DNA of 32,082 nt, taken from positions 1-32,082 of the forward strand of contig MU057743.1 of the NCBI GenBank assembly GCA_013265495.1, written 5' to 3'. This DNA is from Vicugna vicugna (Eukaryota). Shown one piece after another: positions 5,421 through 31,954 of this stretch. The position numbers and the translations under genes are program-made. Under the pieces are notes generated by a model that saw only the letters and a program-made list of their open reading frames with translations, did no database searches and had not been told where the DNA came from. The stretch's first letter is position 1. Each line of letters opens with the position of its first letter.

Positions 5421-5421
<1 letters not shown>

Positions 5422-6998: not shown

Positions 6999-7400
6999 CA
7001 GCCAGCCACATTGGAACCCATCCCTACTCATCAGCACTCCAGAACCAGTCCCAGGCCATTCTGGCACCTGAAGCTATCTACCATAGAATGTAACCCAGCC
7101 TACCAGTTGGCAGGCATAAGCCCTGGGAACCCCTAGGCTGTGTGGTCGGCCACACGAGTAACAGGCCCCACACACCAGCCATCCATCACTAACCCCATGT
7201 TATGTAGGGTCATGTAGCCAGCCATGCTGGGACCTGGCTCTGTATACAAGTGGTCAGGCACCAGTCCTAGGGCCCCATGGGCCATACAGCCAGCCATGCC
7301 AGGACCTTGCACCACCCACCAGTGGGCCAGCACCAGTCCAGGACCCCATGGGCAGCACAGTGAGCTATGCAGGGACCAAGTCTCACGCAATGGTGAGTCA
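6999..7400 (+). repeat. Degenerate 72-bp tandem array (about 6 units) in the L1 B 5' UTR
   Basis: cagccagcca-like unit starts at 6999, 7071, 7143, 7215, 7287 and 7358. Confidence 0.85.
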
Positions 7401-8788: not shown

Positions 8789-8823
8789 TGTATGTGTGTG
8801 CATGTGCGTGTGCGTGTGTGTGT
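8789..8823. repeat. Imperfect (TG)n microsatellite
   Basis: Directly visible. Confidence 0.9.
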
Positions 8824-9517
8824 AGTTTGTGGTATTAAAAAAAAGTCATGGTAAACACAAACTGGAAATCAGTCATTGATATGCGAAAAAGAAAAAAATA
8901 TCGAAAAATTAAATGAAAAATAGTCATCAAATCATAAGAGAAGAGAGCAAAAGGAGAACAAAAATAAATGCAAGAACAACCAGAAAACAATGAACAAAGT
9001 GACAATAAGTACATACCTATCAATAATCACTTTAAATGCTAATGGGAAAAAATGCTCCAATCAAAAGACAGAGTGGTTAATAGATATAGAACAAGACCCA
9101 AATATGTGCTGCGCACAGGAGACCAGCTTTGGATCTAAAGAAACACAAAGACTGAAAGTGAGAGAATCGAAATGGTATTCCATGCAGATAAAAATGAAAT
9201 GAAACCTCAGGTAGCAATATTTATCTCAGGCAAATTACACTTTAAAAGAAAAAGTGTAACAAGAGACAAAGAAAGTATTATATAATAATAGAGAAATCAA
9301 TTTAGCAAGATAATATTACAATGCAAATTTCTATGCACCCAAATTAGAAGTACTTAAATATACAAAGCAAATATTAACAGACATGAAAGGAGAAAATGAG
9401 GGAAACACTATAATAGTAGGGGACTTTAACACCACACAAACATCAATAGACAGATAATCCAGACAGAAATTCAGTAAGGAAACACTGGCATTAAAGGACA
9501 TCTTAGGCCAGAATAAA

Positions 9518-9574
9518 TCTCTCTCTCTTTCTCTCTCTCTGTCTCTCTGTCTGTCCCTGTATAGATAGATAGAT

Positions 9575-9626
<52 letters not shown>
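9518..9626. repeat. Compound (TC)n + (GATA)n microsatellite
   Basis: TC-rich run at 9518-9559, then about 16 ATAG units with one ATG interruption. Confidence 0.95.
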
Positions 9627-12592
9627 TAACATTCCATCCAGAAGTTGAAGAGTACACCCATTCTTTTCAAGTGCACATGGAACATTCCCAAGGATAGATT
9701 ACATGCTAAGTCATAAAGGAAGTCTCAATACATTTAAGAAGATTGAAATAATATGAAATATCTTTTCTGACTACAACCATGTGATATTAGAAATAAACTA
9801 CAAGAAAAAAATCCACACACACACAAAATCTGTGAACACGTGGAGGTTAAACAAAATGCTACTAAACAGCCGATGGGTTACTGAAAAAAATATCACATAT
9901 GAAATATAAAAATACTTGGTCAGAAAGGAAAATGGAAACACAATGATACAAAAAGTATGACACAGCAAAAACATTTCTAAGAAGCAAGTTTATAGTAGTA
10001 CAGGCCTAACTCAGGAAACAAAGTTCTAAATTAAACAGTCTGACCTTATACATCTTATATCACACAGAATTTAAAGAAAGAAAAAGAACAGAAAAACCCG
10101 AAGTTAGTAGAAGGAGAGAGGTAGTAAAAATTAGAGTAGAAATAAATAAAATAGAGACCAAAACTATATAAAATATCCATAAAGCTAAGAGATGGTTCTT
10201 TGAAAAGCTGTATAAACTCATCATTAAAAAAAGCGAGAGGGATCAATTATTTTTTAAATTAGAAATGAAGAGAAGTTACAGCCAAAACCACAGAAATATG
10301 AAGGATCATAAGAGATCGTTATAAATAATTATAAACCAATAAAGAGAACATAGAAGAAATGGATAAATACCTCAAGTGTACAACACCCCAAGACCAAATT
10401 TGGAGAGAAATAGAAATTACGAACAGACTAATTATCTCTAATTATCAATAGAGATCACCAGTAATAAAATGAAATCAGTAAAAACAAAAAATTAAAACAT
10501 AAACTCCCAACAAACAAAAGCCCAGGACTAGCTGACTTTATATGTAAGCTCTACCAAACACTTAAAGATGAGTTAATGGCTATTTTTCTCAAACTGATCC
10601 AGAAAATTGAAGAGTAAGGAAGTTTCTGAACTCATTCTACAAGGCCAGCATCACCCTGATACTAAAACCACAAAAAGATACTACCCAAAAAATAAAATTA
10701 TAGGCCATTATCATTGATGAACATAGATGCAGAAAAATTCTCAACAAAATATTCACAAACTAAGGTCAACAACACATTAAAAGACTCATATAGTATGATC
10801 AACTGGGATTTATTTAAGGGACTCAAGCTCAATCAATGTGAAATACCACATTAACAAATTCAAAATTACAGATCATTTAACACCTCAATAGATGTATACA
10901 AATCTTTTGACAAAAAATCTAGCATTCATTTCTAATGACAACTCTCAACAAAGTCGTTACTTCTGAGGGAACATTCCTCAATATACTAAAGGCAATATAT
11001 GACAAACTCACAACCAACATCATACTCAATGAGAAAAAGCTGAAAGCCTTTCCTCAAAAGTCATGAATAAGACACAGATGCCCACTGTTGCTGCTTTTAT
11101 TCACCTTGGAAATTCTAGCCATAGCAATCAGGCAAGAAAAATAAATTTAGAAATCCAAATTGAAAAGGGAAAAGTAAAACTGTGACTCTTTGCTATATGT
11201 TTCAATGACGTGATACTGTATATAGAAAATCCTAAAATTTCTACAAAATAACAGAACTAATAAATAATTTCAGTACAGTTGCAGGATGCAAAATTAATTT
11301 ATAGAAATCTGTCAGACTTCTATGCACTAGCAATAATCTCTCAGACAGAAATTGTTAAGAAGACAATCTCATTTATAACTGCATCAAGAAGAATAAAGTA
11401 TGTAGGCTTGATACCTAGAACATCTAATCAAGGAGATAAAAGACTTGTACTTGTCAACTATAAAACATTGATGAATGAGATTAAAGATGCCACAAACAGA
11501 TAGAAATATATACTGTTTTCATAGATTGAAAACAATATTTTAAATGACCATGTTACCCAATACAATCTTAACCTGAAATTTGTATAGAATCACAAAAGAC
11601 CCCAAATAGCTAAAACAATATTGAGGAAGAAGACAAATCTGAAAGTTTCACAGTCCCTGACTTCAGAGTATATGACAAATGTACAATAATCAAAACAGTG
11701 TGGTACTGGCACAAAACTGGACACATACATACATAAATGGAACGGAAACCCACACCTACATGGTCAATTACTCTATGACAAAGGAGGCAAGAGAATAAAA
11801 TGGAGAAAAGACAGCATCTTCAATAAATGGTGTTGGGAAAACCAGATAGCTACACGCAGAAAAATCAAGCTAAACTACTTTCTCACACCATAAACAAAAA
11901 TAAACTCAAAATAGAAACATAAATGCTTACATTCAGGGCGTACCCTGAAACTGTAATACCCCTAGAAGAAAACATAGAAAATATGCTCTGTGACATCTGT
12001 CTTAATGATATATATTTTTTTTGATTATGTCTCCTCAGTCAAGGGAAACAAAAGCAAAAATGAACAAGTGAAACCACATAAAACTAAAAATCTTTTCTAC
12101 AGTGAAGGAAACCATCAACAAAATGAAAGCAACACAGTCTTCCTGAAAAATGGGCAGAGGGCCTAAATAGACATTTTTCAAAAAAGGCATTAGATGACAA
12201 ACAAGTGGAAATATATTCTACATCACTCATCAGGGAAATACAAATCAAAACCACAATATGATACCTCTTCACATCTGTCATAACGTCTATTATCAAATAG
12301 ACAACAATTAGGATGTGTTGGTGAGGATGTGGAGGAAAAAAATTCCTTGTTCACTGTTGGTGGGATTGTAAACTGGTTCAACTTTTATGTAAAACAATAT
12401 GAAACTTCTCAAAAATTTAAAAGGAAAATTACCATATGATCCAGCAATTTACCTTCTGGGTGTTTACTAAAAGAAAACAAAAAAATTTTTTTAAATATAT
12501 GCACCCCTACCTTTATTTACAGCATTATTTACAACTCCCAAGCTGTGGAAGGAACCTAAATGTCCATGATAGATGAATACATAAAGTTACAG

Positions 12593-12603
12593 ACACACAC
12601 ATT

Positions 12604-12635
<32 letters not shown>

Positions 12636-12644
12636 CACACACAC
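12593..12644. repeat. (CA)n microsatellite
   Basis: Directly visible. Confidence 0.95.
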
Positions 12645-14171
12645 TGCGGAATAGAATATTACTCAGCAGCATAAATCTTGCCATTTGTGAATACATGAAC
12701 AGAACAACAAGGTATGATGCTAAGTGAAATAAGTCAGAGAAAGACGAATACTGCGTGATCTTACTGATGCATGGAATGTAAAACACAAAACAAACATAAG
12801 CAAGTAAAGGCAGACACATAAATAGTAAAAACAGGTGGTTGCCAGAAGGGAGGGGGTAGGGGTGGGCAAAATATAGGGGAGGGGGATTAAGAGGTACAAT
12901 CCTCCAGTTATACAATAGGTTAAGTCCATGGAATGTAGTATACAGTATAAGAAATAGGGTCAATAATATTTTAATATATTTGTATAGGTACAGATTGTTA
13001 TTAGACTTACCATGGTGATCATTTCATAATATATAGAAATGTCGAATAATTATGTAGTACCCCTGAAAATAACATAATATTGTATATCAGGTATATTTAA
13101 ATAAAATTATCCAGATGGTATTTGATGGATAATTAGGCATTTTTTCTTCCCTTGTTTATTTAAAAGCTACATTAAGATATATTTCACATAGCATGTAATT
13201 TACCCATTGAAAGTGTACAGTACAATTATTCTTATATATTAACAAATATGTTCAATCAAGTTCTGGGTATTCATTCAAATTCAGGATATTTCCTTCACCC
13301 CAAAAGAAAATATTTTCCTTTTAGCTATCACCTCTCTATCTGTTCCCTCATAACCCTCAGGCCTAAGAAACCAGTAATGTATTTTCTGTCTCTGTGGATT
13401 TGACTTTTGTGGAAATTTTGTATGAATAGAACCACATAGTATGTGGTCCTTTATGACTAGCTTCTTTCACTCAGCTTAATGTTTTCCAGGTTTACACATG
13501 TTGCAGCACATATCAGTACTTAATTTACTTTTATTGCTGAATGATATTCTATTGTTTGGATGTTTTGTTTATCTATTCATCAGTCAATGAATGCTTGAGT
13601 TATTTCTATTTTAGCTATTGTGAATATTGCTGCTGTAAATGATTGTGACTGTTTGGGGACAGATATATTTATTTCTTATGGGAACATACCTAGGAGTGGA
13701 GTTGCAGGGTCATACGGTAACTGTATGTTACCCATTTGAGGAATCACGTTTTCCAAAGCGGTTTCACCTTTTTACAGTCCCACCAGCAATGTATGAGACA
13801 TTCAATTCTCCACATTCTGCCAACACTTGCTTTTATCTGACTTCTTGATTCTAGCCACCTAACGGGTGTGAAGTGGTATCTCATTGATGTTTTTATTTGT
13901 ATTTCCGTGATGGTTAATGATGGTCTGTATGATTTCATATGTTTTTTGGTCATCTTAATATTCCTTTTGGAGAAATGCCTACTTAGATCCATTGCCACCC
14001 CATTTTTAATAGAGTTATTTGTCTTTATGTAATTGAGCTTTATGAGTCACTTGTTTATTCTAGACAGCAAATATGTGATTTTCAATTATTTCTATCACCC
14101 TGTAAATTGTCTTTTTACTTTATTGATATTGTCCATTGGGGGGAAAACATTTAAATTTGATCAAGTCCAAT

Positions 14172-14483
14172 TTATTTTATTTTTAACATTTTTTATTGAT
14201 TTATAATCATTTTACAATGTTGTGTCAATTTCCAGTGCAGAGCACAATTTTTCAATTATACATGAACATATATATATTCATTGTCACATTCCTTTCTCTG
14301 TGAGCTACCATAAGATCTTGTATATATTTCCCTGTGCTATACAGTATAATCTTGTTTATCTGTTCTACAGTTTTGAAATCCCAGTCTATCTCCTCCCACC
14401 TCCCACTCCCTTGGCAACCACAAGTCTGTATTCTATGTCTATGAGTCTATTTCTTTTCGGTATTTATTCTTTTTTTTTTTTTT
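14172..14483 (-). mobile_element. 5'-truncated young L1 3' UTR nested in the ancient L1
   Basis: Highly similar to 18730-19020 (aacattttttattgatttataatc...tttacaatgttgtgtcaa). Confidence 0.92.
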
Positions 14484-15187
14484 ATGATTTTAAAGTTTTC
14501 ACTCACATTGAGGCTTTTGATCTAATCAGAGATAACTTTGTACATGGTGCTATTGATTATTTTGAATGTCACTATCCAATTGTCCTACCACCTTAGGTTT
14601 AAAAAGTATTATTTCCCCATTGAATGCTCTCAGCTCCTTTGTCAAACATCAGTTGTTATGGACACAAATGTTTATTTCTGAAATATGAGTTCTATTCATT
14701 GATCTGCATGTTCATGTTTAAACTGGGACAGCAGTATCTTGGTTACTGTTTCTTTCAAGTAAGTTCTGAAATCAAGAAGTGTGGGTACCCCAACTTTGTT
14801 CCTTATTTTCCAGATTGTTTTGAATATCCTGGGTCCCTTGAAATACAATATAAATTTTAGAATCAAGTAATCAATACCAACCATAAAGTCAGATGGGATG
14901 ATAATAGTGTAGTGAATCTAAAGATCAATTCAAAATATATTACCAACTTTAAATATTAATTCTTCCACTTATGGAAATGGGAGGCCTTCTTTTTCATTTG
15001 GACCTTCTTTAGGTTTTTTCAACAATATTGTGTAGTTACAATAGTAAGTTTCATAGTTCTTTTGGTAAATCTACTTCTAAGTATTTTATTGGTTTTGATA
15101 CTATTGTAAATGGAAAGGTTTTCTCAATCTCCTTGGGATATTTTTATTGAAAGTATATACAAACACTGTTGCTTTTTCAATATTGTT

Positions 15188-15536
15188 ATTGTACCTTACA
15201 AGCTTATTTAACTCATTTATTATTTCTAATACTGTTCAGTTAGTCTTTACAATTTTCTACAGTCTAGATCACATATTCTGTGAATAGAGATAGTTTTAAT
15301 TGCTTCATTTTCAATGAGCGTTGTCTTTTTCTTTTTCTTTTTTTTTTTTTTTTTTGCCTTATTCTTTGTTTAATTGTACCTTACAAGCTTATTTAACTCA
15401 TTTATTATTTCTAATACTGTTCAGTTAGTCTTTACAATTTTCTACAGTCTAGATCACATATTCTGTGAATAGAGATAGTTTTAATTGCTTCATTTTCAAT
15501 GAGCGTTGTCTTTTTCTTTTTCTTTTTTTTTTTTTG
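15188..15536. repeat. Near-tandem direct duplication, period 185 nt
   Basis: 15188-15356 and 15373-15536 are identical except for T-run length (18 vs 13). A 16-nt spacer separates them. Confidence 0.97.
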
Positions 15537-15740
15537 ATTGCCTAATTGCTCTGGTTATAACCTGCAGGAAAAAGTTTAGCAAAACTGATGAGAGCAGACA
15601 TCCTTGTCCTGTTCTTCATATTTGGGGAAAAGCAGTCAATCTTCAAACTTTAAGTATAATATTAATTGTGGGTGGTGTTGGTTTGTTGTTTGTTTGTTTG
15701 TTTGATTTTTGGTGGATTATGAATTGGGCAAGTTTCCTTC

Positions 15741-16163
15741 TGTGCTACTTTGCTAGGGCTTTTGTAACAAAGTACCATCAACTGAGTGGTTTAAACAAAA
15801 AAATTTATTTTCTCAGTTTTGAAAGCTATATATCTAAAAGTAAAGTGTCAACCTTCCCTCTGAAAGTTTTAGCAAATTATCCATTCCAGGTCTTTCCTCC
15901 TGGATTCTGTAAATTTATTGGCTTTGACCACATGGATTCAATACTTACACAATGTTCTCCCTGTGTGAGTGTTTGCGTCCACATTTCTTCCTTTCATCAG
16001 AGCCCAGATCACATTGTATTAGGCCCTCCCTTCTCCAGTATGAACTCATCTTAACCAATATGTATGTAACAACTGTATTTCAATATAAGGCCAAGTTTTG
16101 AGGTACTGGATGTTATATATCAAACATATGAGTTTGGAGATACTCAATTCAACACATTTATTC
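15741..16163 (-). mobile_element. MLT1-type LTR (3' LTR of the provirus)
   Basis: ctagggcttttgtaacaaagtacca...aatttattttctcagtttt...tgaggtactgg...caattcaac resembles the antisense MLT1 consensus. Confidence 0.85.
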
Positions 16164-16526
16164 TCTGTCTCCCAACAACAGTCAACCTTTTGCCCACTCC
16201 AACATTTATCTCTTTTTCCTAAACAAAACATATTTACCCCTTCCTGATACTTCAAAATTCTTAGCCCATTCCTGAATCAATCCCAAGTTGAAGTTTTCTT
16301 CTATATATTATCTAAATGGGTGAGACACAGGATATGATTTATCCTCAGGTAAATCTCTCCATCTATAAGCATGTGAAATCAGGCAAGAAGTTATCTTCTC
16401 CCAAAATACAATGATGGATTAGTCACAGGGTAGATATCCCCATTCAAAATGGAGAAATAGGAAGAAAAAAAGCAATCACGAATCGATAGCAGGTCCAAAA
16501 TCCAGCTGGTAAAATTTCATTAGATT

Positions 16527-16577
16527 GATTGATTGATTGAATGGAAGTACAGTCAGTTTACAATGTTGTGTCAATTT
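16527..16577 (-). mobile_element. Ultra-short L1 3' tail insertion with a (GATT)n tail
   Basis: gaagtacagtcagtttacaatgttgtgtcaatttc is the reverse complement of the L1 terminus at 4616-4650. It is flanked by aatttcattagatt / aatttccattggatt. Confidence 0.8.
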
Positions 16578-17189
16578 CCATTGGATTTTAAAGCTTGAGA
16601 ATAATCCTCATTGACTCAATGTGCTGTCCTCTGGGTCCACCAAGGTTGTGGCCTAATATCCTCAGCCTTAAGAGACAGCCCTGCACTCTGGAATCCAGGA
16701 TGTGTCCCCACCTTCAGGGTCATTCTTACACTTACTTGAAAATTAACACATATTCACAGCTGAATAATTCTATATGTCCATTTCCTGCCAGTAGAATCTG
16801 AGAAGTCTAAAAGCCTTCCTTAATTTTGTCCCATCTCTCTCCTCTTCACTACAACTTTACAGTGTTTCTGCTGAATTTGTGGCTTGGACTCATAAGTCCC
16901 ACACTTAATCTCTTCAGCAAATCCTTGTCTAGCCACTGTCTTGATGTTTTCTCCAAAGCACACTATTTTGTTCTTATGTTTGTTTGTTTCTTTCTTTGGA
17001 ATATGGCTAAGCTGAGAAATTCCTGAATCTTCATTTCTGATTATTTTCTGTTTTATAATTTTTTCCAAAACATTCATCTAATGTTGTTTTATTATAAGTG
17101 CCAAGGAGAAACCAGACCAAGTTTTCAACACTGCTTAAATGCCTCCTCAGCCAAATATAGAGGTTTTGTTTTTTCCTTACATGTTCTAC

Positions 17190-17666
17190 TGTTTCTAAAC
17201 TGAATTTGAGTCTGGTCGACTGCATTCTGTAAAGTCAATCTACTGACACTGGGTTCTGGTGAAAGAAACTGCATAGTCTATTGTAAGACACCATACTAGG
17301 AGTCGGGACAGATAATGCTCAAAACACCTGAACTCTCTGATGGGTTTCAGGAAGGCATTGTTAAAGGCCAGATGAGATGGTGGGGGGTAATCACGGTTCT
17401 CCGATTTGTTGATGGTGAGGTAATAAGGTGGTATCACAAGCGTTAACACTTACAATCCTTAGGCTCCAGTAGGCCTGGGAGCTATGTGCCCATGGTCATC
17501 AAATAGTTAACATCTTCCATTTGGTGTTTTTTTTTGACATCTTTAAAGCAACTCAGGAAATGTGTATCAGAAACTATTGTCTAGGTACTTCAGAGAGGAT
17601 GTAAAACAGAGGATATAAGGGAGAGATCTGTCCTGGGAAGACCCCATAGTGTCCTGCTCAGTTACA
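17190..17666 (-). mobile_element. ERV1 solo LTR (MER41-like), 477 bp
   Basis: TG...CA termini with a perfect 4-bp TSD ctac (17186-17189, 17667-17670). The motifs aaagtcaatctactgacactgggtt and gtcctgctcagttaca resemble artiodactyl MER41-like LTRs. Confidence 0.85.
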
Positions 17667-18032
17667 CTACTTTCTACTCAACCAGACACAATTTACCCAA
17701 AATATCTGCTCTGGTTTCCAATAAGATCTTCCTCATTTCGGTCTCAGACTTCACCAGTAGTATATTTCACGTTCATATAGATATCAACATTCTGTTTATG
17801 TGGGTGGGTGGGTGTTGTGTGTGCATTTGTATACTTTTTTATTTTTTCTATGAGGACATAAGTCATAGTGTATTATGGGAACAACCTTTTCCAGTATGAC
17901 CTCATATTAACTTCAATAAATAAATACATCTGCAAAACTGCTGTTTCAAATTAAGGCTACATTCCGAGGTATCAGAGGTTTGGAATTAATATATGAAGTT
18001 CTGGGCTGTACAGGTCATAGCATATCATCTTC

Positions 18033-18185
18033 AATTCCTAGTTTGTTTAGTGCTCATGAAAGGCATTGAAGGGGTCTTGGATTTTGTCAAACACTTTTTC
18101 TGGAAATACTGGGATAATCGTGTGTATTTTGTTTCTCTAGTCTCATAATATAGTATATTACAGAAATTTATTTTAGCATATTTGA
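18033..18185 (-). mobile_element. Continuation of the ancient L1MB-like host after the MaLR
   Basis: attcctagtttg...ttggattttgtcaaacactttttctg continues the antisense ORF2 interrupted at 15740. Confidence 0.8.
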
Positions 18186-18194
18186 TTTTTTTGT

Positions 18195-18725: not shown

Positions 18726-19541
18726 TTTTTTTAAAACATTTTTTATTGATTTATAATCGTTTTACAATGTTGTGTCAAATTCCAGTGTTCAGCACAATTT
18801 TTCAGTCATTCATGGACATATACACACTCATTGTCATATTTTTTCTCTGTGAGTTATCATAAGATTTTGTGTATATTTCCCTGTGCTATACAGTGTAATC
18901 TTGTTTATCTATTCTACAATTTTGAAATCCCTGTCTATCCCTTCCCACCCTCCAACCCACTGGTTACCACAAGTCTGTATTCTCGGTCTGTGAGTCTATT
19001 TCTGTCCTGTATTTATGCTTTGTTTTTGTTTCTTTGTTTGTTTTTGTTTTTGTTTTTTAGATTCCACATATGAGCGATCTCATATGGTATTTTTCTTTCT
19101 CTTTCTGGCTTACTTCACTTAGAATGATATTCTGCAGGAGCAACTATGTTGCTGCAAATGGCATTTTGTTCTCGGTTGTTTTGGTTGAGTAGTATTTCAT
19201 TGTATAAATATACCACCACTTCTTTATCCAGTCACCTATTGAAGGACATTTAGGCTCTTTCCATGTTTTGGCTATTGTAAATATTGCTGCATTGAATATT
19301 GGGGTGCAGGTGTCATCCTGAAGTAGATTTCCTTCTGGATACAAGCCCAGGAGTGGGATTCCTGGGTCATATGGGAAGTCTATTCCTAGACTTTTGAGGA
19401 ATCTCCACACTGTTTTCCATAGTGGCTGCACCAAACTGCATTCCCACCAGCAGTGTAGGAGGGTTCCCCTTTCTCCACAGCCTCTCCAGCATTTGTCATT
19501 TGTGGATTTTTGAATGACGGCCATTCTGACTGGTGTGAGGT
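18726..19541 (-). mobile_element. Young L1 3' portion (ORF2 C-terminus, 3' UTR, polyA) running into an assembly gap
   Basis: ORF 19144-19524 encodes [34 protein letters not shown], the L1 ORF2p cysteine-rich domain. T-run at 18726. Confidence 0.95.
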
Positions 19542-20468
19542 NNNNNNNNNNNNNNNNNNNNNNNNNNNNNNNNNNNNNNNNNNNNNNNNNNNNNNNNNNN
19601 NNNNNNNNNNNNNNNNNNNNNNNNNNNNNNNNNNNNNNNNNNNNNNNNNNNNNNNNNNNNNNNNNNNNNNNNNNNNNNNNNNNNNNNNNNNNNNNNNNNN
19701 NNNNNNNNNNNNNNNNNNNNNNNNNNNNNNNNNNNNNNNNNNNNNNNNNNNNNNNNNNNNNNNNNNNNNNNNNNNNNNNNNNNNNNNNNNNNNNNNNNNN
19801 NNNNNNNNNNNNNNNNNNNNNNNNNNNNNNNNNNNNNNNNNNNNNNNNNNNNNNNNNNNNNNNNNNNNNNNNNNNNNNNNNNNNNNNNNNNNNNNNNNNN
19901 NNNNNNNNNNNNNNNNNNNNNNNNNNNNNNNNNNNNNNNNNNNNNNNNNNNNNNNNNNNNNNNNNNNNNNNNNNNNNNNNNNNNNNNNNNNNNNNNNNNN
20001 NNNNNNNNNNNNNNNNNNNNNNNNNNNNNNNNNNNNNNNNNNNNNNNNNNNNNNNNNNNNNNNNNNNNNNNNNNNNNNNNNNNNNNNNNNNNNNNNNNNN
20101 NNNNNNNNNNNNNNNNNNNNNNNNNNNNNNNNNNNNNNNNNNNNNNNNNNNNNNNNNNNNNNNNNNNNNNNNNNNNNNNNNNNNNNNNNNNNNNNNNNNN
20201 NNNNNNNNNNNNNNNNNNNNNNNNNNNNNNNNNNNNNNNNNNNNNNNNNNNNNNNNNNNNNNNNNNNNNNNNNNNNNNNNNNNNNNNNNNNNNNNNNNNN
20301 NNNNNNNNNNNNNNNNNNNNNNNNNNNNNNNNNNNNNNNNNNNNNNNNNNNNNNNNNNNNNNNNNNNNNNNNNNNNNNNNNNNNNNNNNNNNNNNNNNNN
20401 NNNNNNNNNNNNNNNNNNNNNNNNNNNNNNNNNNNNNNNNNNNNNNNNNNNNNNNNNNNNNNNNNNNN
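19542..20468. other. Assembly gap (927 N)
   Basis: N run. Confidence 1.
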
Positions 20469-22153
20469 TGTGGACCTTTTAGGGTTTTCTATATATAGTA
20501 ACATGTCATCAGCATATAATGACACTTTTACCTCTTCTTTTCCAATTTGGATCCCTGGTATTTCTTTCTCTTGCCTGACTGCTGTGGCTAGGTCTTCCAG
20601 CTCTATGTTGAATAGGAGTGGTGATAGTGGACATCCTTGTCTTGTCCCAGATTTTAGTGGGAAGTTTTTGAGTTTTTCACCATTTAGTAATATGCTGGCT
20701 GTAGGTTTGTCATATATAGCTTTTATTATGTTGAGATATGTTCCCTCTATACCCACTTTGACGAGAGTTTTTATCATAAATGGATGTTGAATTTTATCAA
20801 ATGCTTTTTCTGCATCGATTGAGATGATCATGTGGTTTTTGTCCTTTCTCTTGTTGATGTGATGTATTACATTGATTGATTTGGGTATGTTGAACCAGCC
20901 TTGTGTCCCTGGGATGAACGCCACTTGGTCATGATGTATAATTTTTTTATGTGTTGTTGGATTCTATTTGCTAAAATATTGGTGAGGATTTTGGCGTCTA
21001 TGTTCGTAAGTGATATTGGCCTATAATTCTCTTTTTTTATAGTGTCTTTGCCTGGTTTTGGTGTAAGGGTGATGGTGGCTTCATAGAATGAGTTTGGGAG
21101 TATTCCCTCCTTTTCAATCGTCTGGAAGATTTTGAGAAGGACTGGTATGAGTTCTTCTTTGTATGTTTGGTAGAATTTTTTGGTGAATCCATCCGGTCCT
21201 GGTCTTTTATTTGTAGGGAGGTTTTAAATTGCTATTTCTATTTCCTTTCTAGTGATCAGATTATTCCAGTGGTCAGTTTCTTCTTGATTCAGTTTTGGTG
21301 GACAGTATGTTTCCATAAACTTGTCCATCTCCTCTAGGTTATCCAGTTTGGTTCCATATAGTTTTTCATAATATTCTCGTATGATATTCTGTATTTCTAT
21401 TTTGTTTGTTGTAATTTCTCCATTTTCCTTTCTTATTTTAATTTTGCTAATTTGTGCTCTCACTTTTTTCTTCTTTGTGAGTTTGGCCAGAGGTTTGTCG
21501 ATTTTATTTACTTTTTCAAAAAAACAGTTTTTGCTTTGGTTGATTTTTTCTATCATCTCATTAATCTCTATTGTATTTAATTCCTCTCTGATCTTTATTA
21601 TTTCCTTCCTTCTGCTGCTTTTTGGGGCTTTATGTTCTTCTTTTTCTAATTCACTCAGGTGGTGGGTTAACATGTTTCTTTGAGATTGTTCTTTTTGAGG
21701 AAGGCCTGTATCTCTATAAACTTCCTTCTTAGCACTGCCTTTGCTGTGTCCCATAGGTTTTGAGTGGTTGTGCTTTCATTATCATTTGTCTCAAGGTATT
21801 TTTTAATTTCAGCTTTGATTTCCTCATTGATCCATTGTTTTTTAAATAACATATTGTTTAATCTTCATACTTTCCTTTTTTTCTCCTTTGTTTCTCTGTT
21901 GTTGATTTCCAGTTTCGTGGCATTGTGGTCAGTGAAGATGCTTGAGATAATTTCTATCATATTAAAATTGTTGATGGTTTCGTTTGTGCCCAAGTACATG
22001 ATCTATTCTGGAAAATGTTCCATATGCACTTGAAAACAATGTATATCCTATTTCTGGGGGTGTAATGCTCTGAAAATATCCACCAAATCTAGTTTTTCTA
22101 TTGTAGTATTTAATTTCTCTGTTGCTTTGCTTATTTTCTGTCTGGAAGATCTG
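20469..22153 (-). mobile_element. Young L1 ORF2 segment (late EN through RT), antisense
   Basis: [15 protein letters not shown] and [17 protein letters not shown] motifs, plus WINEEIKAEIKKYLETND. Frameshifted. Confidence 0.95.
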
Positions 22154-23969
22154 GGAATAAATCTAACGAAGGAGGTGAAAGAAATATACCCAGAATACTA
22201 TAAACCATTGATGAAGGAAATTAAAGAAGACTTTAAAAAATGAAAAGATATTCCATGCTCTTGGATTGGAAGAATCAATATTGTTAAAATGGTCACACTG
22301 CCCAAGGCAATCTACAGACTTAATGCAATCCCTATCCAATTACCCAGGACATATTTCATAGAACTAGAACAAATCATAGTACAATTTATATGGAACTATC
22401 AAAGACCTAGAATTGCCAAAGCATTACTGAAGAGAAAGAAAGAGGCTGGAGGAATGACTCTCCCAGACTTCAGACAATACTATAGAGCTACAGTCATCAA
22501 GACAGCATGGCATTGGTACCAAAATTGATATATAGACCAATGGAACAGAATAGAGAGCCCAGAAATGAACGCACAAACTTTCGGTCAACTCATCTTCGAT
22601 AAAGGAGGCAAGAGTATTCAATGGAACAAAGACAGTCTCTTCAGCAAATAGTGTTGGGAAAACTGGAAGGCAGCATGTAAAACAATGAAGCTAGAACACT
22701 CCCTTACACCATATACAAAAATCAACTCAAAATGGATTAAAGACTTAAACATAAGACAAGATACAATAAACCTCCTAGAGGAAAACATAGGCAAAACATT
22801 ATCTGACATACATTTCAAAAATTTTCTCCTAGAAGAAATAAAAGCAAGAATAAACAAATGGGATGTAATGAAACTTACAAGCTTCTGCACAGCAAAGGAA
22901 GCCAGAAGTAAAACAAGAAGAAAACCTATGGAATGGGAGAAAATTTTTGCAAGTGAAACCGACAAAGGCTTGATCTCCAGAATATATAAGCAGCTCATAT
23001 GACTCAATAAGAAAAAAATAAACAACCCAATCCAAAAATGGGCAGAAGACCTAAACAAGCAATTCTCCAAGGAAGACATACAAATGATCAAAAAGCACAT
23101 GAAAAATGATCAATATCACTAATTATCAGAGAAATTCAAATCAAAACTACAATGAGGTATCACCTCACACCAGTCAGAAAGGTCATCATTCAATAATCCA
23201 CCAATGACAAATGCTGGAGAGGCTGTGGAGAAAGGGGAACCCTCCTACAGTGCTGGTGGGAATGCAGTTTGGTGCAGCCACTATGGAAAACAGTGTGGAG
23301 ATTCCTCAAAAGACTAGGAATAGACTTACCATATGACCCAGGAATCCCACTCCTGGGCTTGTATCCAGAAAGAAATCTACTTCAGGATGTCACCTGCACC
23401 CCAATGTTCATAGCAGCACTATTTACAATAGCCAAAACATGGAAAGAGCCTAAAATTTTCATCAACAGGTGACTGGATAAAGAAGAATTGGTATATTTAT
23501 ACAATGGAATACTACTCAGCCATAAAGACTGACAACATAATGCCATTTGCAGCAACATGGATGCTCCTGGAGAATATCATTGTAAGTGAAGTAAGCCAGA
23601 AAGAGAAAGAAAAATACCATATGAGATCGCTCATATGTGGAATATAAGAAACAAAAACAAAAACAAAGAAACAGAAACAAATCATAAATACAGGACAGAT
23701 ATAGACTCACAGACAGAGAATACAGTCTTGTGGTTACCAGGGGGGTGGAGGGTGGGAAGGGATAGACTGGAATTTCAAAATTGTAGAATAGGTAAACAAG
23801 ATTATACTGTATAGCACAGGGAAATATACACAAAATGTTATGATAACTCACAGAAAAAAAAAGTGACAATGAGTGTGTATATGTCCATGAATGACTGAAA
23901 AATTGTGCTGAACACTGTTATTTGACACAACATTGTAAAATGATAGTAATTCAATAAGAAATGTTTAAA
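22149..23969 (+). mobile_element. Young L1 3' half (post-RT ORF2 and 3' UTR), sense
   Basis: [29 protein letters not shown] and [13 protein letters not shown] peptides. Ends caataagaaatgtttaaaa. Confidence 0.95.
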
Positions 23970-24268
23970 ACAACACACAACAACAACATAAATACAAAAC
24001 AGAAACAGACTCATAGACAGAATACAAACTTGTGGATTTCAAGTGGTCAGTGGGTGGGAAGGGTCAGACTAGGATTTTGAAATGCAGAATAATAAACAAG
24101 ATTGTACTCTATAGCACAGGGAAAAATATACAAGATATTGTGGTGGCTCATAGTGGAAAAAATATAACAATGATTATATATCTGTGCATGTATGACTGAA
24201 AATTTGTGCTCTACACTAGAATTTGACACAGCATTGTAAAGTTACTATTACTCAATAAAAAAGTGAAA
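23970..24268 (+). mobile_element. Second L1 3' UTR and polyA directly after the first
   Basis: aaatacaaaacagaaacagactcatagac...ttgtgctctacactagaatttgacacagcattgtaaa...caataaaaa. Confidence 0.9.
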
Positions 24269-27200
24269 AGATAAAAAACAACAATTGGTTAATGATGAAA
24301 TCAAATTTAAATTTAAAAAAAAACTTGAGACAAATTAAAATGGAAACACAACCACACAAAATATGGGATGCAGCAAAGGCAGTGCTAACAGGGAAGTTTA
24401 TAACGATAAAGGCCTCCCTCAAAAAAGTACAGACCTCAAATAAACAATCTAACTCACCAGGTAAAAGAACTAGAAAAAGAAGAGCAAAAACACCCAAAAG
24501 TCAGCAGAAGGAAGGAAATAATTAAGATCAGGGAGGAAATAAATTAAATAGAGATTTAAAAAACCATAGAAAAATCAATCTAATCAAAAACTGTTTTTTT
24601 GAAACAGTAAATAAAATCGACAAACCTCTGAACAAACTCACAAAGAAAAAGAGCACAAATAAGCAAAATAAGAAAGGAAAATGGAGAAATTACAATAAAT
24701 AAGATAGAAATACAGAATATCATAAAAGGATATTATGAAAAACTATATGGAATGAAAATGGATAACCTAGACGAGATGGACAAGTTTCTGGAAACACACA
24801 GTCCACCAAGACTGAATCAAGAAGAAACTGACAACTTGAACAAACTGATCACTAGAAATGAAACCGAAATAGCAATAAAAAAGTCCCCTACAAATGAAAG
24901 TCCAGGACCAGACGGCTTCACCATTGAATTCTACCAAACATACAAAGAAGAATTCATACCAGTCCTTCTCAAGGTCTTCCAGAAGACTGAAAGAGACTGA
25001 ATACTCACAAACTCATTCTATGAAGCCACCATTACCCTGGTAACAAAACCAGGCAAAGACACTACCAAAAAAGAGAATTACAGACCAATATCACTGATTA
25101 ACATAGATGCAAAAATCCTTGCCAAAATACTAGCAAATAGAATCCAACAACACATAAAAAATTATTATACATGATGACCAAATGGGGTTCATCTCAGGAA
25201 CACAAGGGTGGTTCAACATATGCAAATTCATCAATGTAATACATCACATCAACAAGAGAAATTACAAAAGCCACATGATCGTCTCAATAGGTGTAGAAAA
25301 AGCTTTTAATAAAATTCAACACCCATTTATGATAAAAACTCTGACCAAAGTGGGTATAGAGGGGACATATCTCAACATCATAAAAACTCTTTATGACAAA
25401 CCTACAGCCAGCATAGCACTCAACAGTGAAAAACTCAAAAGCTTCCCACTAAAATCTGGGACAAGACAAGGCTGCCCACTATCACCACCCCTATTCAACA
25501 TATTCATGGAAGTTCTGGCCACAGTAATCAGACAAGGAATTAAAAGGTATCCAAATTGGAAAAGAAGAGGTAAAAATCTCACTATATGCAGATGCCATGA
25601 TAATATGTATAGAAAACCCTAAAAGGTCTACACAGAACTAATAAAAAAGTTCAGCAATGTAGGAGGTTGCAAGATTAACGTTCAAAAATTAGTAGCATTT
25701 CTTTACACAAATGATGAATCAGCAAAAAAATAAAGTAAAGAAACAATCTCCTTTAAAATAGCACCCAAATTAATAAAATATCTGGGAATAAATCTAACCA
25801 AGGAGGTGAAATAATTATACATGGAAAACTATGAAACAGTGATTAAGGAAATTAAAGAACATTAAAAAAAACAAAAGGAAAGATAGACAATGCTCCTGGA
25901 TTGGAGAATCAATATTGTTAAAATGGCCATACTACCCAAGGTAATCTACAGATTTAGTGCAATCCCTATCAAATTACTCAGGACATATTTCACAGTACTA
26001 GAACAAATCATAATAAAATTTATATGGAACCACAGAAGACCTAGAATTGCCAAAGCATTACTGAAGAAAAAGAAAGAGACTGGAGTAATCTCTCCCAGAC
26101 TTCAGACAATACTATAGAGCTACAGTCATCAAGACAGCGTGGTATTGGTACAAAAATGGATATATAGATCAATGGAACAGAAAAGAGAGCCCAGAAATGA
26201 ACCCACAAACTTTGGGTGAACTAATCTTTGACAAAGGAGGCAAGAATATACAATGGAATAAAGACAGGCTCTTCAGCAAATGGTGTTGGGAAAACTGGAC
26301 AGCAGCATGTAAATCAGTGAAGCTAGAACACTCCCTTACATCATACACAAATATCAACTTAAAATGGATCAAAGACTTAAACATAAGAGGATACAATAAA
26401 CCTCCTGAAAGGAAATATAGGCAAAACATTAACTGACATACATCTCAAATATGCTCTCTTGGGCAGTCTACCCAAGCAATTGAAATAAAAGCAAGAATAA
26501 ACAAATGGGACCTAATGAAACTTACAAGCTCCTGCACAGCAAAGGAATCCATAAGTAAAACAGAAAGGCAACCTACAGAATGGGAGAAAAGTTTTGCAAA
26601 TGAAACTGACAAAGGCTTGATCTCCAGAATATATAAGAAGCTCATATGACTTAATAAGAAAAAAGCAAACAACCCAATCCAAAAATGGGCAAAATACCTA
26701 AACAAACAATTCTCCAAGGAAGACATAAAAATGATTAATAGGCACATGAAAAAATGCTCACTATCACTAATTATCAGAGAAATGCAAATCAAAATTATAA
26801 TGAGGTATCACCTCACACCAGTCAGAATGTCTATCATTCGAAAGTCCACAAATGACAAATGCTGGAGAGGCTGTGGATAAAAGGGAACCCTTCTACACTG
26901 CTGGTGGGAATGCAGCTTGGTGCAGCCACTGTAGAAAACAGTATAGAGATTCCTCAAAAGTCTAGGAATAGACTTACTGTATGACCCAGGAATCCCACTC
27001 CTGGGTTTATATCCAGAAGGAACCCTACTTCAAAATGACACCTGCACCACAATGTTCATAGCAGCACTCTTTACAATGGTCAAGACATGGAAACAGTCTA
27101 AATGTCCATCAACAGGTGACTGAATAAAGAAGATGTGGTATATTTATTGAGTGGAATACTATTTAGCCACAAAAACTGACAATGTAACACCATTTGCAGC

Positions 27201-27626
27201 AACATGGATGTACCTGGAGAATGTCATTGTAAGGAAGCCAGAAAAAGAAAGAAAAATAGCATATGAGATTGCTCGTATGTGGAATCTAAACAAAAACAGA
27301 AAACAAAAAAATAAAAACAACAACAACAAAAGAAAACTTACATACAAAACAGAAACAGACTCACAGACATAGAATACAAACTTGTGGTTGCCAGGGGGAC
27401 AGGGGCTGGGAAAGGACAGACTGGGATTTCAAAATATAGAATAGATAACAAGATTGTACTGTGTAGCTCAGGGAAATATATACAGGACTTTGTGGTGGCT
27501 CACAGCAAAAGAAAATGTGACAATGAATGTATGTATGTTCATGTATAACTGAAAATTGTGCTCTAAACTGGAATTTGACACAACATGGTAAAAAGAATGT
27601 AACTCAATAAAAAAAGTTTAAAAAAA
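24269..27626 (+). mobile_element. 5'-truncated L1, 3.35 kb (element G): ORF2 from the end of EN, 3' UTR and polyA
   Basis: [33 protein letters not shown] and [10 protein letters not shown] peptides. Ends aactcaataaaaaaagtttaaaaaaa. Several frameshifts. Confidence 0.95.
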
Positions 27627-27816
27627 TCAGTATTTAATGTAGTTGTTACTTCCAGAGTGGAAAGTGAGGGGATGAAACTGAACAAAGCACTTCGTGGGTA
27701 ACAGTTATGTTCTTTTTCTTAAACTGGGAGACAGATCATTATGCCTTACAGCTTAAATACATTTTCTACTCTTGTGAATCTACTCAGTATGGAGTAAAAT
27801 TAACTGAAAATATTTA
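27627..27816 (+). mobile_element. Very old L1ME-like 3'-end remnant
   Basis: tagttgttacttc...gttctttttcttaaactggg resembles the L1ME 3' UTR motif. Highly diverged. Confidence 0.45.
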
Positions 27817-27907
27817 GGGGGTAGAGCTCAGCAGTACAGTGCACACTTAGCATGCACAAGGTCCTGGGTTCAATACCCAATAGCTCTATATAAAATAAAA
27901 AGATTTA
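27817..27907 (+). mobile_element. tRNA-derived SINE, short form
   Basis: A-box agctcagcagta, B-box ggttcaatacc, A-rich tail, TSD aaaatattta / aaagtattta. Confidence 0.9.
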
Positions 27908-28334
27908 AAAAGTATTTAAAATGTATATATTTTCAATACATCAATACTATTTAAAAGTTAAATAAACAGAGCCCAAGTAGTTTTGAGCACAGGGAGGTTA
28001 TCCGCAAGATACCCCTACCTTTGCCCTCTACATTTTGTGTAAATTAATTTACATCTTGTGTAAATTAATCTGTGTCAAAGAGAAGGGCATTTGTGGTGTG
28101 AATGTCAATTCCTAAAATGAGCTATAATGAGAACAACTACCATGCAAGAACCTTATAAAAATACTACCTTTTCACTTTGCCACTGTACTTCTGAGATACC
28201 TTTTCCTGGTTGGAACAATATACAAAACAATGGAGATGCCAAAGACAAACTTAGGCAAAAGACATCAATATTCAGCCTTTGGCCCTAAAATTTTTTTTGG
28301 TGAAGAGAGGAGAGTACTTCAAAGACCATCTGCA

Positions 28335-28425
28335 GCTTTCTAGCTAAGAAGCCATACTGGGCACACAACCTCAGAATCCTGTTAAACAGAACAGATAATT
28401 ATGCCTATAGATCAGAGCTGCCGTG
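28335..28425 (+). mobile_element. Possible MIR remnant
   Basis: ctagct...tgggca...cctcag...ctgttaaa...gataattatgccta loosely follows the MIR core. Confidence 0.3.
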
Positions 28426-29263
28426 TAATCTTCTTCCTGCAAAGCCAGGCTGATAGGCTCAGGGTTAGAGAAATCTGATCAGCAGCTCATCTCTGGTACC
28501 CAGAAATGTGGATCTGGCCATCACAGCTGGACAGAGGACAGATGAACAAGAGAAAATGCCTGGCTCAGTGTGGCATCCCTCCGGAGGTCGAGACCACCAA
28601 AAGCAAAGGACTAATCACACAATTCAGAGCAGTGGTGGTGAAATTCAGTGTTCTGGCACCTACGTATTTCCCTTCAGACAGTGCAGCTGGTGTTTTAATT
28701 TTGAAATCAAGCACAAACTAATTCTTTATCAATTTTTTTGCCTTCCTAACACTGTAAGGGCTGTTTGTTTGTTTAAGTAAAACAATAATAAAATATTGCT
28801 CATTTGAGGTTTTGAACATGTATTTCTCCATATATTTTAAGAAGTCATTTGTAAACACAGAAAAGCACCAATTTTACCAGTTTTGCCATTGAAACCCTGA
28901 AGAAATCAGGGCTGCTCTTAGTCCACATCTGTAGGGCGGAGCGAAGCATTCCTCTGGGGGCCAGAAGTTCAAGTATGATCCTCCCTCAAGACGTCCTTTT
29001 TTTTTTCAAATGAAGTATTGTCTTAAGATATTGGAGTGTATCCTAAGGGTAATATTCCTGTCAAAGGCTGGGCTGCATTATTTAAGAAAAACTTTTTTTT
29101 CCATTTCACTTAGTTATTATCCTCAGGACAAAAGGGATGTATCATCCAAAGCAGAAAGTGCTCTGCAATGAGTCTTCTTTTAGTAAACCAATCAGAGATC
29201 CTGAAAATCATTTTATGTCTCGTCAACTTTTCAGCATGGTAACAAGGAATAAAGAGAAGTTAC

Positions 29264-29398
29264 CTCCAGGTACAGTTATTTTGATTAAAATATCCATACA
29301 GAAAGCAAGCAACCCCCATGACTGCTGCCAGTAGGAGCATCTGAGTGTAATAGCCCAGCCAAGCAAGGTAGATTCCAACCTTCTCTCCATAGGATTTC
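29264..29398 (-). CDS. ANO6: 135-nt internal coding exon of an anoctamin-6 (TMEM16F)-like gene covering the first transmembrane region; possibly a duplicated or pseudogenised copy
   Basis: Acceptor tctttctttctgcag| and donor GAG|gtaact. The phase 2-2 open frame reads (R)[44 protein letters not shown](S), against recalled human ANO6 [46 protein letters not shown]. Confidence 0.92.
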
Positions 29399-29469
29399 CT
29401 GCAGAAAGAAAGACGGTAGTTTCATAAGACACATAATCACTCTGTAGCTTCATCCTCATATTAATTTCT

Positions 29470-29605
29470 TTTTTATTTTTCTTTGGTTCTTTTGGAGGGG
29501 CATAATTAGATTTATTTGTTTTTTAAATGAAGGCATTGGGGATTGAAGCCAGGACCTCATGCATGCTAGGCATGCACTCTACCACTGAGCTATACCCTCC
29601 CTCCA
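29470..29605 (-). mobile_element. tRNA-derived SINE with a perfect 14-bp TSD
   Basis: The reverse complement reads ggagggtatagctcagtggtagagtgcatgcctagcatgcatgaggtcctggcttcaatcccca. TSD tcatattaatttct at 29456-29469 and 29606-29619. Confidence 0.95.
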
Positions 29606-29709
29606 TCATATTAATTTCTGATTCTAAATCAAGAGGGCTTTAAGTTTAAACCTCTGACTCAATTCACACTTAAAACTTATGCGTTTTCATAGCAGACCCC
29701 AAATTCTAC

Positions 29710-29764
29710 CTTGAAATAAGAAGTATTTTCTGTATCATCGATGTACTGATCACTGGTTCACCTG
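29710..29764 (-). other. Candidate cryptic exon (55 nt, or 52 nt via NAGNAG)
   Basis: Long polypyrimidine tract ttgtctcctcctttgctctgttctcatttatctctcttcag| and donor AAG|gtagaa. No homology recognised. Confidence 0.3.
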
Positions 29765-31781
29765 CTGAAGAGAGATAAATGAGAACAGAGCAAAGGAGGA
29801 GACAAGGCCAACTCTGGAGCAGATGCAGGGGATCATCATCACTCACTGGAAAGACTGGTACATTCAACAAATCCCCCCAAAGGTCGGTCTTAACAGGTGT
29901 GACACAAGTGAACATCAACTGGCTCAGTCAACTGCTTCTGTTATCTCGGGAACTTCCCTGGAGCAAATGCATCATAAACCACAGATAACAAGAAAATGGC
30001 TGGTAATGATAACATTAGTGCAATGTCTCTCTGACAAAATACTTATAAAACTCACTGTGGGAATGGGAGAGGGCAGGAGAGATGTGACTGAGGAAGGTAC
30101 TGCCCTGTATTCTTTGTATCTAGCATGTCTGTTTTTCCTAGGTTTTATAAACTCTTCAATGTTTCTCAGTTAATTTGGAGTAGATGGAATAGGCCAGGTA
30201 GGCAAGATTAGAAGAAAGGAGACAGGGCATGAAGTGGTGCCAGGCTGGTCCTGAAAGGGAGACAGACACAGACAGGCAGACACAGAAGGTTTAGGGATGA
30301 GGGGGAACAATGAGACGGCTGCTCAGGTGTGTCTTGCTGTTGCTTATACTTTCCTCAACTGGCTCACTGCTGACTCGGCAGTGTTCATTAAAACCTGTGG
30401 ATTTCCTTAGCTCTGAGTTCTCTCTGAGGCTTCCGGCTCAGTCTGGAGCTGGGTTGAGCTCCATGGGCTTAGCCTAGGGGGTAATCAGCTCTGAGAACAG
30501 CCTGGAGTCCTGGAAAACTTCATGCAGGAATATCCTTGGGCTGGACCAGCACTCACAGGGCAGCTGTGAGACCAGCTCCATCGTCAGAGACCTGGGCGTG
30601 GACCATTCCATGGGGAAAAGTTCTGAGCCCGATGCCAAGTCCGAAAGGAGGGACAAAGTGTGTTCATTCTCACGTGACTGGGCTTTGTGGCCTGGATCAC
30701 GGATGGCAGGCTCAGTATGGTGTCTGGCAGAGAAAAGCCTGGCAATGGTTTTGACATGTCTTCGATTCTTTCTTGTTAAGCTTTTTGTAATACATTCTTA
30801 TCAACTATCTGTCCTGAAAATGCCACATTCAAAACTGAATGAATGTTAGAAGTTGCCTGCTCCAACGGCCCAATGGTAAACACACCCTGCTACAGTTAGG
30901 GAGCTGGTCAGCCTCTGTCTGGATATTTACAGTGACGGGGAGTTCACTACTTCCGAAGGTTACATGTCGGCAAGAAGGTGAGAAAGAATTTTTGAAACTT
31001 AAACAGATGTCTGCCTCCTAGTCCTTGCTGAAAGGCTAGGAATAATGAGGATCCCTTCAAATGTAATTTTGTCTGATTGTTATCTCTCTCTGTCAAAAAC
31101 ACCCCAATTCTTAATATCAATTTTTCAAAATTCAGCTTTGATTTCTTTTTATCAAAATTATACCATACATTCATTAAAGAGTCAAACAGTTCTAGAACAA
31201 CGATTGTAAAAAGGAGCAGTTCCCAACAACCGCCCCATTTCCTGGCCAGAATCAACAAACCTACTCAGCTCCTACTGCTGACTCTTGGAATAATGACTCC
31301 CTATGTCTGACTAATATCCTTGTAACACAGCCTACTGACTTTTTCAGCTTTATGTAACACTTATTTGACTTTCTATTTTGGAAAATGAGGATTAAGCTCT
31401 GTTTCAAACCCCATCTCATCTACACACCCAAACCTTCATTATTCCAAATTTTGACACAATTACATTATAATTTTGATCAGCTCAGTATCCTTGCTTTACA
31501 TTATTAGGACTCTGTACAGACTGCTCACAGCTATAGCAATTTGTCTGCTAGGCTTACTTTTTTCTACCCTACTATGTTTTCCTGGAGTTAATAATTGTCT
31601 TGGTGGTTCATAGCTTAGATTCCTGTGCAATTATCTTGTCACACAAGAGGTCACTAGTGGGAAACAACAAAGGCAACACGTGGACCAGGAGCAGGGAACA
31701 GATCAACGTATTTTCCTTAGCAAAACATACTTAAATAGTGGGAAAATTGTTTTGTTTTCTAACACAAACAAACACAAACCC

Positions 31782-31954
31782 NNNNNNNNNNNNNNNNNNN
31801 NNNNNNNNNNNNNNNNNNNNNNNNNNNNNNNNNNNNNNNNNNNNNNNNNNNNNNNNNNNNNNNNNNNNNNNNNNNNNNNNNNNNNNNNNNNNNNNNNNNN
31901 NNNNNNNNNNNNNNNNNNNNNNNNNNNNNNNNNNNNNNNNNNNNNNNNNNNNNN
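31782..31954. other. Assembly gap (173 N)
   Basis: N run. Confidence 1.

Follow-up and report, generated by a model that had tools for sequence, protein, structure and literature searches.

A Vicugna vicugna exon resembling ANO6 probably belongs to a camelid pseudogene family with about 44 unprocessed copies of part of ANO6

The 32,082-nucleotide stretch of Vicugna vicugna DNA analysed here (hereafter the window; bases 1-32082 of the 102,589-base contig C751) contains an open exon that resembles part of ANO6 (TMEM16F), a Ca2+-activated lipid scramblase and ion channel. We wondered whether this exon marks the ANO6 gene of the species, or whether it sits in a duplicate under relaxed selection, as the original prediction had proposed. 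The exon itself was as that prediction had described it, namely open, 135 nt long, bounded by AG/GT and ANO6-like in its peptide, and it lies on the minus strand. It runs from 29398 to 29264, with an AG acceptor at 29399-29400 and a GT donor at 29262-29263; on that strand the intron ends in ...ttctttctgcag, the exon begins with GAAATCC and ends with CTGGAG, and the next intron starts with gtaact. Translation from 29397 gave 44 codons, all of them open. A second frame across the exon is open too and forms part of a 99-aa stop-to-stop ORF at 29226-29522 (minus strand), which explains the earlier remark that the ORF track reads this exon in the wrong frame.

The translated peptide matched solved Anoctamin-6 chains from end to end (e.g. 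6p46 and 8b8g; residues 290-333, E 2e-20), whereas its match to solved Anoctamin-1 was far weaker (E 7e-10). It also matched the Pfam Anoctamin family PF04547 over profile positions 4-39 (E 2.2e-12, 47 bits with a cut-off of 28), and a protein-collection search returned 83 proteins, of which the named ones were nearly all mammalian anoctamin-6 and the named best matches were anoctamin-6 throughout. Judged by these alignments, the resemblance to ANO6 lies far above chance level, and as a sequence relative the exon falls in the TMEM16 family (PF04547) and its ANO6 subfamily. It is the counterpart of the ANO6 exon for residues 277-320, the region of the first transmembrane helix (the TM1 exon). 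When alpaca ANO6 was compared with the window by tblastn, no other ANO6 exon was found there and this exon was the sole match. The peptide was identical to no protein in a collection of 5.8 billion, where the best match reached 91%.

A search of the genome with alpaca ANO6 (P0024) identified an intact ANO6 locus on contig C5495, where an ordered series of exons extends from 3,466,315 to 3,544,009. Wherever DNA was fetched, the exons of this locus were 100% identical to P0024, and the normal TM1 peptide is encoded at 3490189-3490320. The window could be taken for the genuine ANO6 locus, in a species whose ANO6 has diverged unusually far, given that its exon is open and spliceable; however, with all sampled exons on C5495 identical to alpaca ANO6 and the window introns only 86% identical to those of C5495, we regard this reading as refuted and leave it next to no probability. 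The claim that the window is not the main ANO6 locus was therefore correct, and the C5495 locus (~3.466-3.544 Mb) is referred to as the parent below. In P0024 (alpaca anoctamin-6, 940 aa), residues ~438-505 are colinear with the DNA that immediately follows the exon at C5495:3512063-3512407. The 100% identity extends across this segment too; the wild-camel protein lacks it, and it seems to be intron that the gene model has translated rather than real protein.

We then counted the copies in the genome; the assembly behind this count (2.03 Gb in 12,405 contigs) is fragmented. The window peptide was found in 51 places, of which 45 were of ANO6 type (73-100% identity) and six were anoctamin paralogues (53-58%). 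All 45 ANO6-type loci were fetched and aligned; apart from the window and the parent, they comprise 43 others, which are spread over 43 further contigs. The exon is thus far from being the sole genomic copy, a possibility that had been raised as a counter-argument to duplication. A DNA search with window 27900-31700 likewise returned the window and 39 other loci at 86-97% identity, among 40 candidates scored, with the parent recovered at 86%.

The sequence around the exon shows how it came to be copied. On the minus strand, window 27622-31634 (intron, exon and intron) is colinear with C5495:3487970-3491936, at 86.0% identity over 4051 columns of the blastn alignment and with 11.3% substitutions. 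Since the flanks align to parent introns, over 4 kb at 86%, the window copy is unprocessed, as had been predicted; the introns and exon borders of the parent have been kept, and the intact parent lies elsewhere in the genome. The block that is colinear with a sister copy on contig C7120 is longer: window 20469-31633 (minus strand) corresponds to C7120 553854-542641, with 94.4% identity over 11264 columns, 4.4% substitutions and 45 gaps. By the customary definition, a segmental duplication needs a minimum length of 1 kb and a minimum identity of 90%. This level is reached between the window and C7120 (94.4% over 11.3 kb; 97% over 3.7 kb) and between the window and several siblings at 90-91%, whereas the 86% between window and parent is under the customary threshold. 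The proposed duplicate of part of ANO6 is supported, and it is one of about 44 copies and not a single one.

Over the exon and its 200-bp flanks, the window and C7120 are 99.3% identical, and many copies are found on short contigs or at contig ends. Both facts would suit an assembly artefact, in which C751 is a haplotype or mis-assembled duplicate of C7120 and the odd residues are sequencing errors. However, the 4.4% substitutions and 45 gaps that separate C751 from C7120 over 11 kb are well beyond allelic levels, and the other copies mutually differ by ~9% on average. The substitutions themselves point the same way. The exon is identical to the parent exon at 126 of 135 bases (93.3%; 91.4% in the 200 bases upstream), and four of the nine differences (I>V and three synonymous) are common to nearly all copies. 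Another four, two of them synonymous and the others F>L and V>M (the latter at a CpG), are confined to the window/C7120 lineage, and one site was hit twice, by Y>F in the family and then by F>S in the window lineage. All five window-lineage changes are also carried by C7120 and hence are not random sequencing errors, contrary to a caveat attached to the original prediction. We rejected the haplotig or sequencing-error reading on the strength of this divergence and these common substitutions, and consider it extremely improbable.

At the protein level, the window peptide and a Homo sapiens ANO6 fragment are 86% identical (38/44), in agreement with the six changes from human ANO6 that had been counted earlier. 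Two of them, L>F and D>N, recur in the C5495 ANO6 exon and in the ANO6 of alpaca and wild camel, which have the same 44-aa peptide for the TM1 exon; by this comparison they are ordinary camelid ANO6 residues and not special to the window copy. Four copy-specific residues are left in the window exon relative to the parent, namely Y>S, I>V, F>L and V>M.

Having established colinearity with C7120, we used this sister copy to reconstruct the unit that was amplified. C7120 tracks parent 3480331-3531076 at 82-86% identity, and its exons have the same order and spacing as in the parent. It has a LINE-rich stretch in place of parent 3491936-3497737 and a clean 6-kb deletion of parent 3498031-3504079, which removes the exons for residues 320-356 (KEVC...) and 356-376. 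Stops or frameshifts were found in its exons for residues 104-200, 382-482, 492-566, 570-634 and 624-661. Genome-wide, the KEVC exon is present just at the parent and one paralogue and is absent from every copy, which is why it had been missed downstream of the exon; the tblastn and whole-genome searches agree with that earlier failure to find it. The last ANO6 exon was single-copy in the genome search, at the parent, and the exon for residues 39-81 is 14 kb away from the duplicated piece. By contrast with these exons confined to the parent side, the exon for residues 698-771 has ~34 further loci and that for residues 483-567 has ~43. Most alignments of the latter break at the residue where C7120 is frameshifted, which suggests that this frameshift predates the amplification.

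Altogether, the duplicated ANO6 piece extends from parent C5495:3480331 to at least 3533752 (~53 kb), with exons for residues 82 to ~770. It reaches at least the exon for residues 701-769 and is without the first and last exons and without the promoter. Its 3' end was bracketed between residues ~770 and 873, and for the 5' side of the unit, too, the outer limit was bracketed. Because the KEVC exon, the last exon and the residue 39-81 exon are not in the copies, no copy encodes a complete anoctamin.

The same arrangement continues on C751 itself. C751 36636-48474 is colinear with C7120 at 95.2%, and a pseudo-exon for residues 82-104, with an in-frame stop, is found in order at 37534-37466, just past the window, so the TM1 exon is not the "orphan" that it had been called. 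Parent homology on C751 ends at 38832, equivalent to parent 3480331, where it also ends in C7120. Between the window and this colinear block, an N run of 4.55 kb (C751 32083-36635) hides three expected pseudo-exons (residues 104-276).

Beyond this breakpoint the copies leave the parent and remain similar to one another. The 10 kb upstream of the C7120 ANO6 breakpoint are not matched anywhere in the 30 kb that precede the breakpoint in the parent, and they recur beside other copies at 80-93% identity (mostly 85-90%; 8/8 candidates scored). The junction between flank and ANO6 is continuous in C11054, C4354, C2055 and C8102, which represent both of the copy types described below. The next 10 kb out (C751 42083-52082) recurs as well in 13/13 candidates scored, with long matches at 85-91%, several of which extend to the very end of the query. 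This pattern suggests a single founding junction, after which a composite block of at least ~66 kb, including at least 13 kb of non-ANO6 flank, would have been re-duplicated. In the co-amplified flank C7120:525001-535000, none of 49 ORFs matched a Pfam family at E <=0.001.

Downstream of the exon, the copies fall into two types. The window, C7120, C4860, C5723, C381 and C11054 retain the parent intron after the exon, whereas in the other 38 copies homology breaks 31 bp beyond the donor site. In the window, the intron downstream of the exon also contains a decayed LINE-type retroelement cluster at 20469-27621, which is common to C7120 and is not found at the corresponding position of the parent, where just repeat-type matches of 67-83% were obtained. 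Two of the 107 window ORFs scanned matched the Pfam family RVT_1, one at 25158-25619 on the plus strand (E 2.4e-20) and the other, weak and under the Pfam cut-off, at 20870-21223 on the minus strand (E 9e-5).

With LINE remnants directly adjoining the ANO6-homologous block, and LINE-like sequence following where window homology stops 31 bp past the exon in 38/44 copies, one might suppose that the exon was brought along by LINE-1 3' transduction or within a processed retrocopy. However, introns are kept on both sides of the exon, and the unit comprises over 50 kb of ANO6 exons and introns in their proper order, with a further 13 kb or more of flank, a size well beyond the capacity of retrotransposition. 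The sequence after the break in the 38 copies moreover matches the C7120 LINE cluster 2 kb further downstream, at 84-86% like the rest of the unit, which is better explained by a deletion. We infer that this subfamily descends from a founder with a 2-kb deletion and not from a new insertion. An origin by LINE-1 transduction or retrocopying was rejected on account of the introns and of a unit larger than 60 kb, and its likelihood is negligible.

Several contigs carry more complex arrangements. C4877 (164 kb) contains two units in inverted, tail-to-tail orientation, at ~7-72 kb on the plus strand and ~86-140 kb on the minus strand; their 3' exons are ~15 kb apart and their TM1 exon regions differ by ~5% (366 aligned bases). 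A partial tandem re-duplication is present in C7120:575001-585000, where parent 3524904-3531076 is followed by a second copy that starts from 3526264, and the residue 668-700 exon accordingly occurs twice, at 578345 and 583185. On C7854, a second copy of the upstream flank (124589-134440, minus strand) lies ~70 kb from the ANO6 unit of that contig; no TM1 exon was found beside this second flank copy, which means that partial units exist.

We next considered whether the copies have been maintained by selection. The TM1 exon is broken in 22 of the 44 copies by stops, by frameshifts of 1-11 bases or by changes at the AG/GT sites (in C7120, the last TGG has become a stop), and the remaining 22/44 keep it open with AG/GT. 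Variants private to a single copy comprised 63 non-synonymous and 5 stop changes versus 21 synonymous ones, over 103.7 and 28.3 sites, respectively. The resulting omega of 0.88 was not different from 1 (p 0.61), and an omega of 0.3 or less was rejected (p 3e-6). All exon variants taken together were distributed over the three codon positions as 48/40/48, and nucleotide diversity was 0.05-0.11 in the exon versus 0.07-0.13 in the flanking intron. The 3' third of the exon looked conserved (pi 0.050) and was discounted as a candidate, since it is AT-rich, has no CpG and is near the intron range. The lesions and the neutral substitution pattern, both observed directly in the aligned copies, bear out the relaxed selection that had been proposed.

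The comparison of the window exon with the parent exon gave 4 non-synonymous and 5 synonymous differences, with a pN/pS of 0.22, which could hint at past constraint. Because the nine differences are made up of family-wide changes and changes of the window/C7120 lineage, this value is not proof of constraint on the copy, and the three family-wide synonymous differences may have arisen on the parent's own constrained lineage. Of the features that a functional ANO6 should display, a full ordered set of exons, an open frame in the neighbouring exons and purifying selection were all lacking here. As far as substitutions in the aligned copies can tell, the window exon drifts neutrally, i.e. it is in neutral decay.

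How old is this family, and how widely is it spread? The copies mutually differ by the ~9% mentioned above over 366 shared bases, and they are 88-91% identical over 2.4 kb. Mammalian neutral rates are in the range of 1.1-2.2e-9 per site per year. With these rates, the rough age of the split from the parent is ~26-51 million years, and that of the window/C7120 split ~10-20 million years. RefSeq contains predicted "anoctamin-6-like" proteins from three camelids: in alpaca, isoforms X1-X3 on a 123.7-Mb contig and an X3 on a 99.4-Mb contig, the latter together with an "anoctamin-5-like" model; in dromedary, seven models, of which six are each on a contig of their own and the seventh has no recorded contig; and in wild camel, one model. 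One alpaca model has the exact peptide of copy C4860. The camelid models and the copies are joined by derived residues that set them apart from the ANO6 of both genera (PSEQG/PNERY, APPRS/AHPRS and KFYGEKV/KYYGEKI). Since models from both genera carry these derived residues of the copies, the family predates the split between Old and New World camelids. The Camelus models (P0086 and P0108-P0114; seven dromedary and one wild-camel) are near-identical and all leave the frame after FAW in the TM1 exon, which suggests that Camelus may have undergone a separate, recent burst of an already frameshifted copy.

Given these RefSeq protein-coding models, some sibling copies may be transcribed. The copies could then be a transcribed family with meaningful products, either short anoctamin-6-like proteins or regulatory RNAs, in which the exon is used. 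This would agree with the coding predictions that RefSeq places on siblings in the three camelids, and with the 22/44 TM1 exons that are open with AG/GT. However, the substitutions that followed the amplification are neutral (omega 0.88, with 0.3 or less rejected), and the Camelus models are out of frame within the very exon concerned. In addition, no protein in the 5.8-billion collection has the window peptide (91% at best), and the promoter, first exons and last exon of ANO6 are not within the duplicated piece. We therefore consider a meaningful transcribed family very unlikely. A bolder version would make the composite block a pan-camelid "core duplicon" of at least ~66 kb, present at dozens of sites on several chromosomes and still transcribed, with some copies yielding short anoctamin-6-like peptides or RNAs that influence the expression of ANO6 or give rise to new genes; the predicted 112-150-aa dromedary and 143-204-aa alpaca models would be products of such a transcribed duplicon. 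To this version, too, we assign little probability. A search of sequence runs with the exon yielded 20 rows, two of them RNA, each with 0.30 of the ten words and none with half or more, and these shares are too small to use.

The explanation that we favor, with a probability of about 0.9, is that the window holds one of ~44 unprocessed ANO6 pseudogenes that form a camelid family, with the exon as a pseudo-exon of this copy. For the order of events and the duplication mechanism we infer the following. An internal genomic piece of ANO6 (~53 kb) would have been copied to another site beside unrelated DNA, and this founder would have lost a 6-kb stretch with the next two exons. It presumably also gained LINE insertions in the intron after the TM1 exon, and one of its later exons a frameshift. 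ANO6 piece and flank (at least 13 kb) would then have been re-duplicated many times as a composite block, and the copies would have drifted neutrally since. The latest split of the window copy would be that from the sister copy on C7120, and its exon would merely happen to have stayed open. The open frame and canonical splice sites of this exon are a counter-point to the pseudogene reading. Still, on the basis of the exon content and lesions described above, the window copy is not expected to encode a working anoctamin.

Compared with a functional ANO6, the window copy is alike in the alignment of its peptide, in its exon borders and in its flanking introns, all of which are as in the parent gene. 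The copies differ in that they are without the promoter, the first exons and the last exon, and in that the next two exons are deleted; with the stops and frameshifts of the sister copy and the neutral evolution, the ten-helix protein cannot be made. For annotators this means that neither the window exon nor the sibling "anoctamin-6-like" models are evidence of extra scramblase genes. As the exon is a neutral relic, its odd residues are uninformative on ANO6 function. In camelid genomics, the copy family can also mislead the mapping of reads to ANO6 and the calling of variants and copy number there.

With ~44 copies of at least ~66 kb, the family would amount to roughly 3 Mb of ANO6-derived amplicon that is common to Old and New World camelids. 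Interspersed segmental duplications with core duplicons are known from primates (the alpaca study PMC13751797 cites Bailey & Eichler 2006). The ANO6 family is similar in that a large composite block (at least ~66 kb) with a partial gene was re-duplicated to many sites, and in that an inverted pair occurs on one contig, C4877. It is different in that most pairs of copies are only ~88-91% identical, and the parent 86%, below the customary 90%; identity below this threshold makes the family an old and largely decayed burst. We obtained no evidence of a new fusion gene from the ANO6 block.

In alpaca, a recent study (PMC13751797, 2026) describes pseudogene-rich repetitive blocks on chromosomes 11, 17 and 36, which contain 18 NEK10-like copies, ATF5 pseudogenes, FMN2-like and ABHD17A-like sequences and others. 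According to this study, the blocks are put down to local or segmental duplication and subsequent decay, and they are absent or reduced in Camelus. The likeness to the ANO6 family is that many fragmented, degenerate gene-derived copies are present in a camelid genome. The difference is that the ANO6-like family has dromedary and wild-camel RefSeq models with the derived residues, whereas the study finds the alpaca blocks absent or reduced there. ANO6 is not named in the passages on the blocks, and our literature search found no paper that links ANO6 or anoctamins with duplication in camelids, alpaca or camels. The ANO6 family is of the same kind as the alpaca blocks, yet apparently older and pan-camelid, and it would be an undescribed addition to the duplicated, pseudogene-rich blocks known in alpaca. 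The window exon itself is unremarkable as a neutral relic. The family as a whole is of modest interest, and it could serve to mark the timing and mode of duplication bursts in camelid genomes.

The rest of the window has a different make-up. Colinearity with C7120 stops at an N run at 19542-20468 (an assembly gap or a withheld stretch), and a second N run lies at 31782-31954. On the far side of the first run, window 1-18187 is repeat-rich, holds no ANO6 exon, and is colinear with neither the parent nor the fetched part of C7120. Its close relatives were found only on two small contigs, with C2136 matching window 1-245 at 95% and 440-8034 at 97%, and C11060 matching window 9343-18187 at 94-97%. 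This departure from the sister copy across the N run may reflect either a scaffold join or a copy-specific rearrangement. Adjoining the N run, at 18726-19541 on the plus strand, is a young, high-copy interspersed repeat with matches of 86-95% on many contigs.
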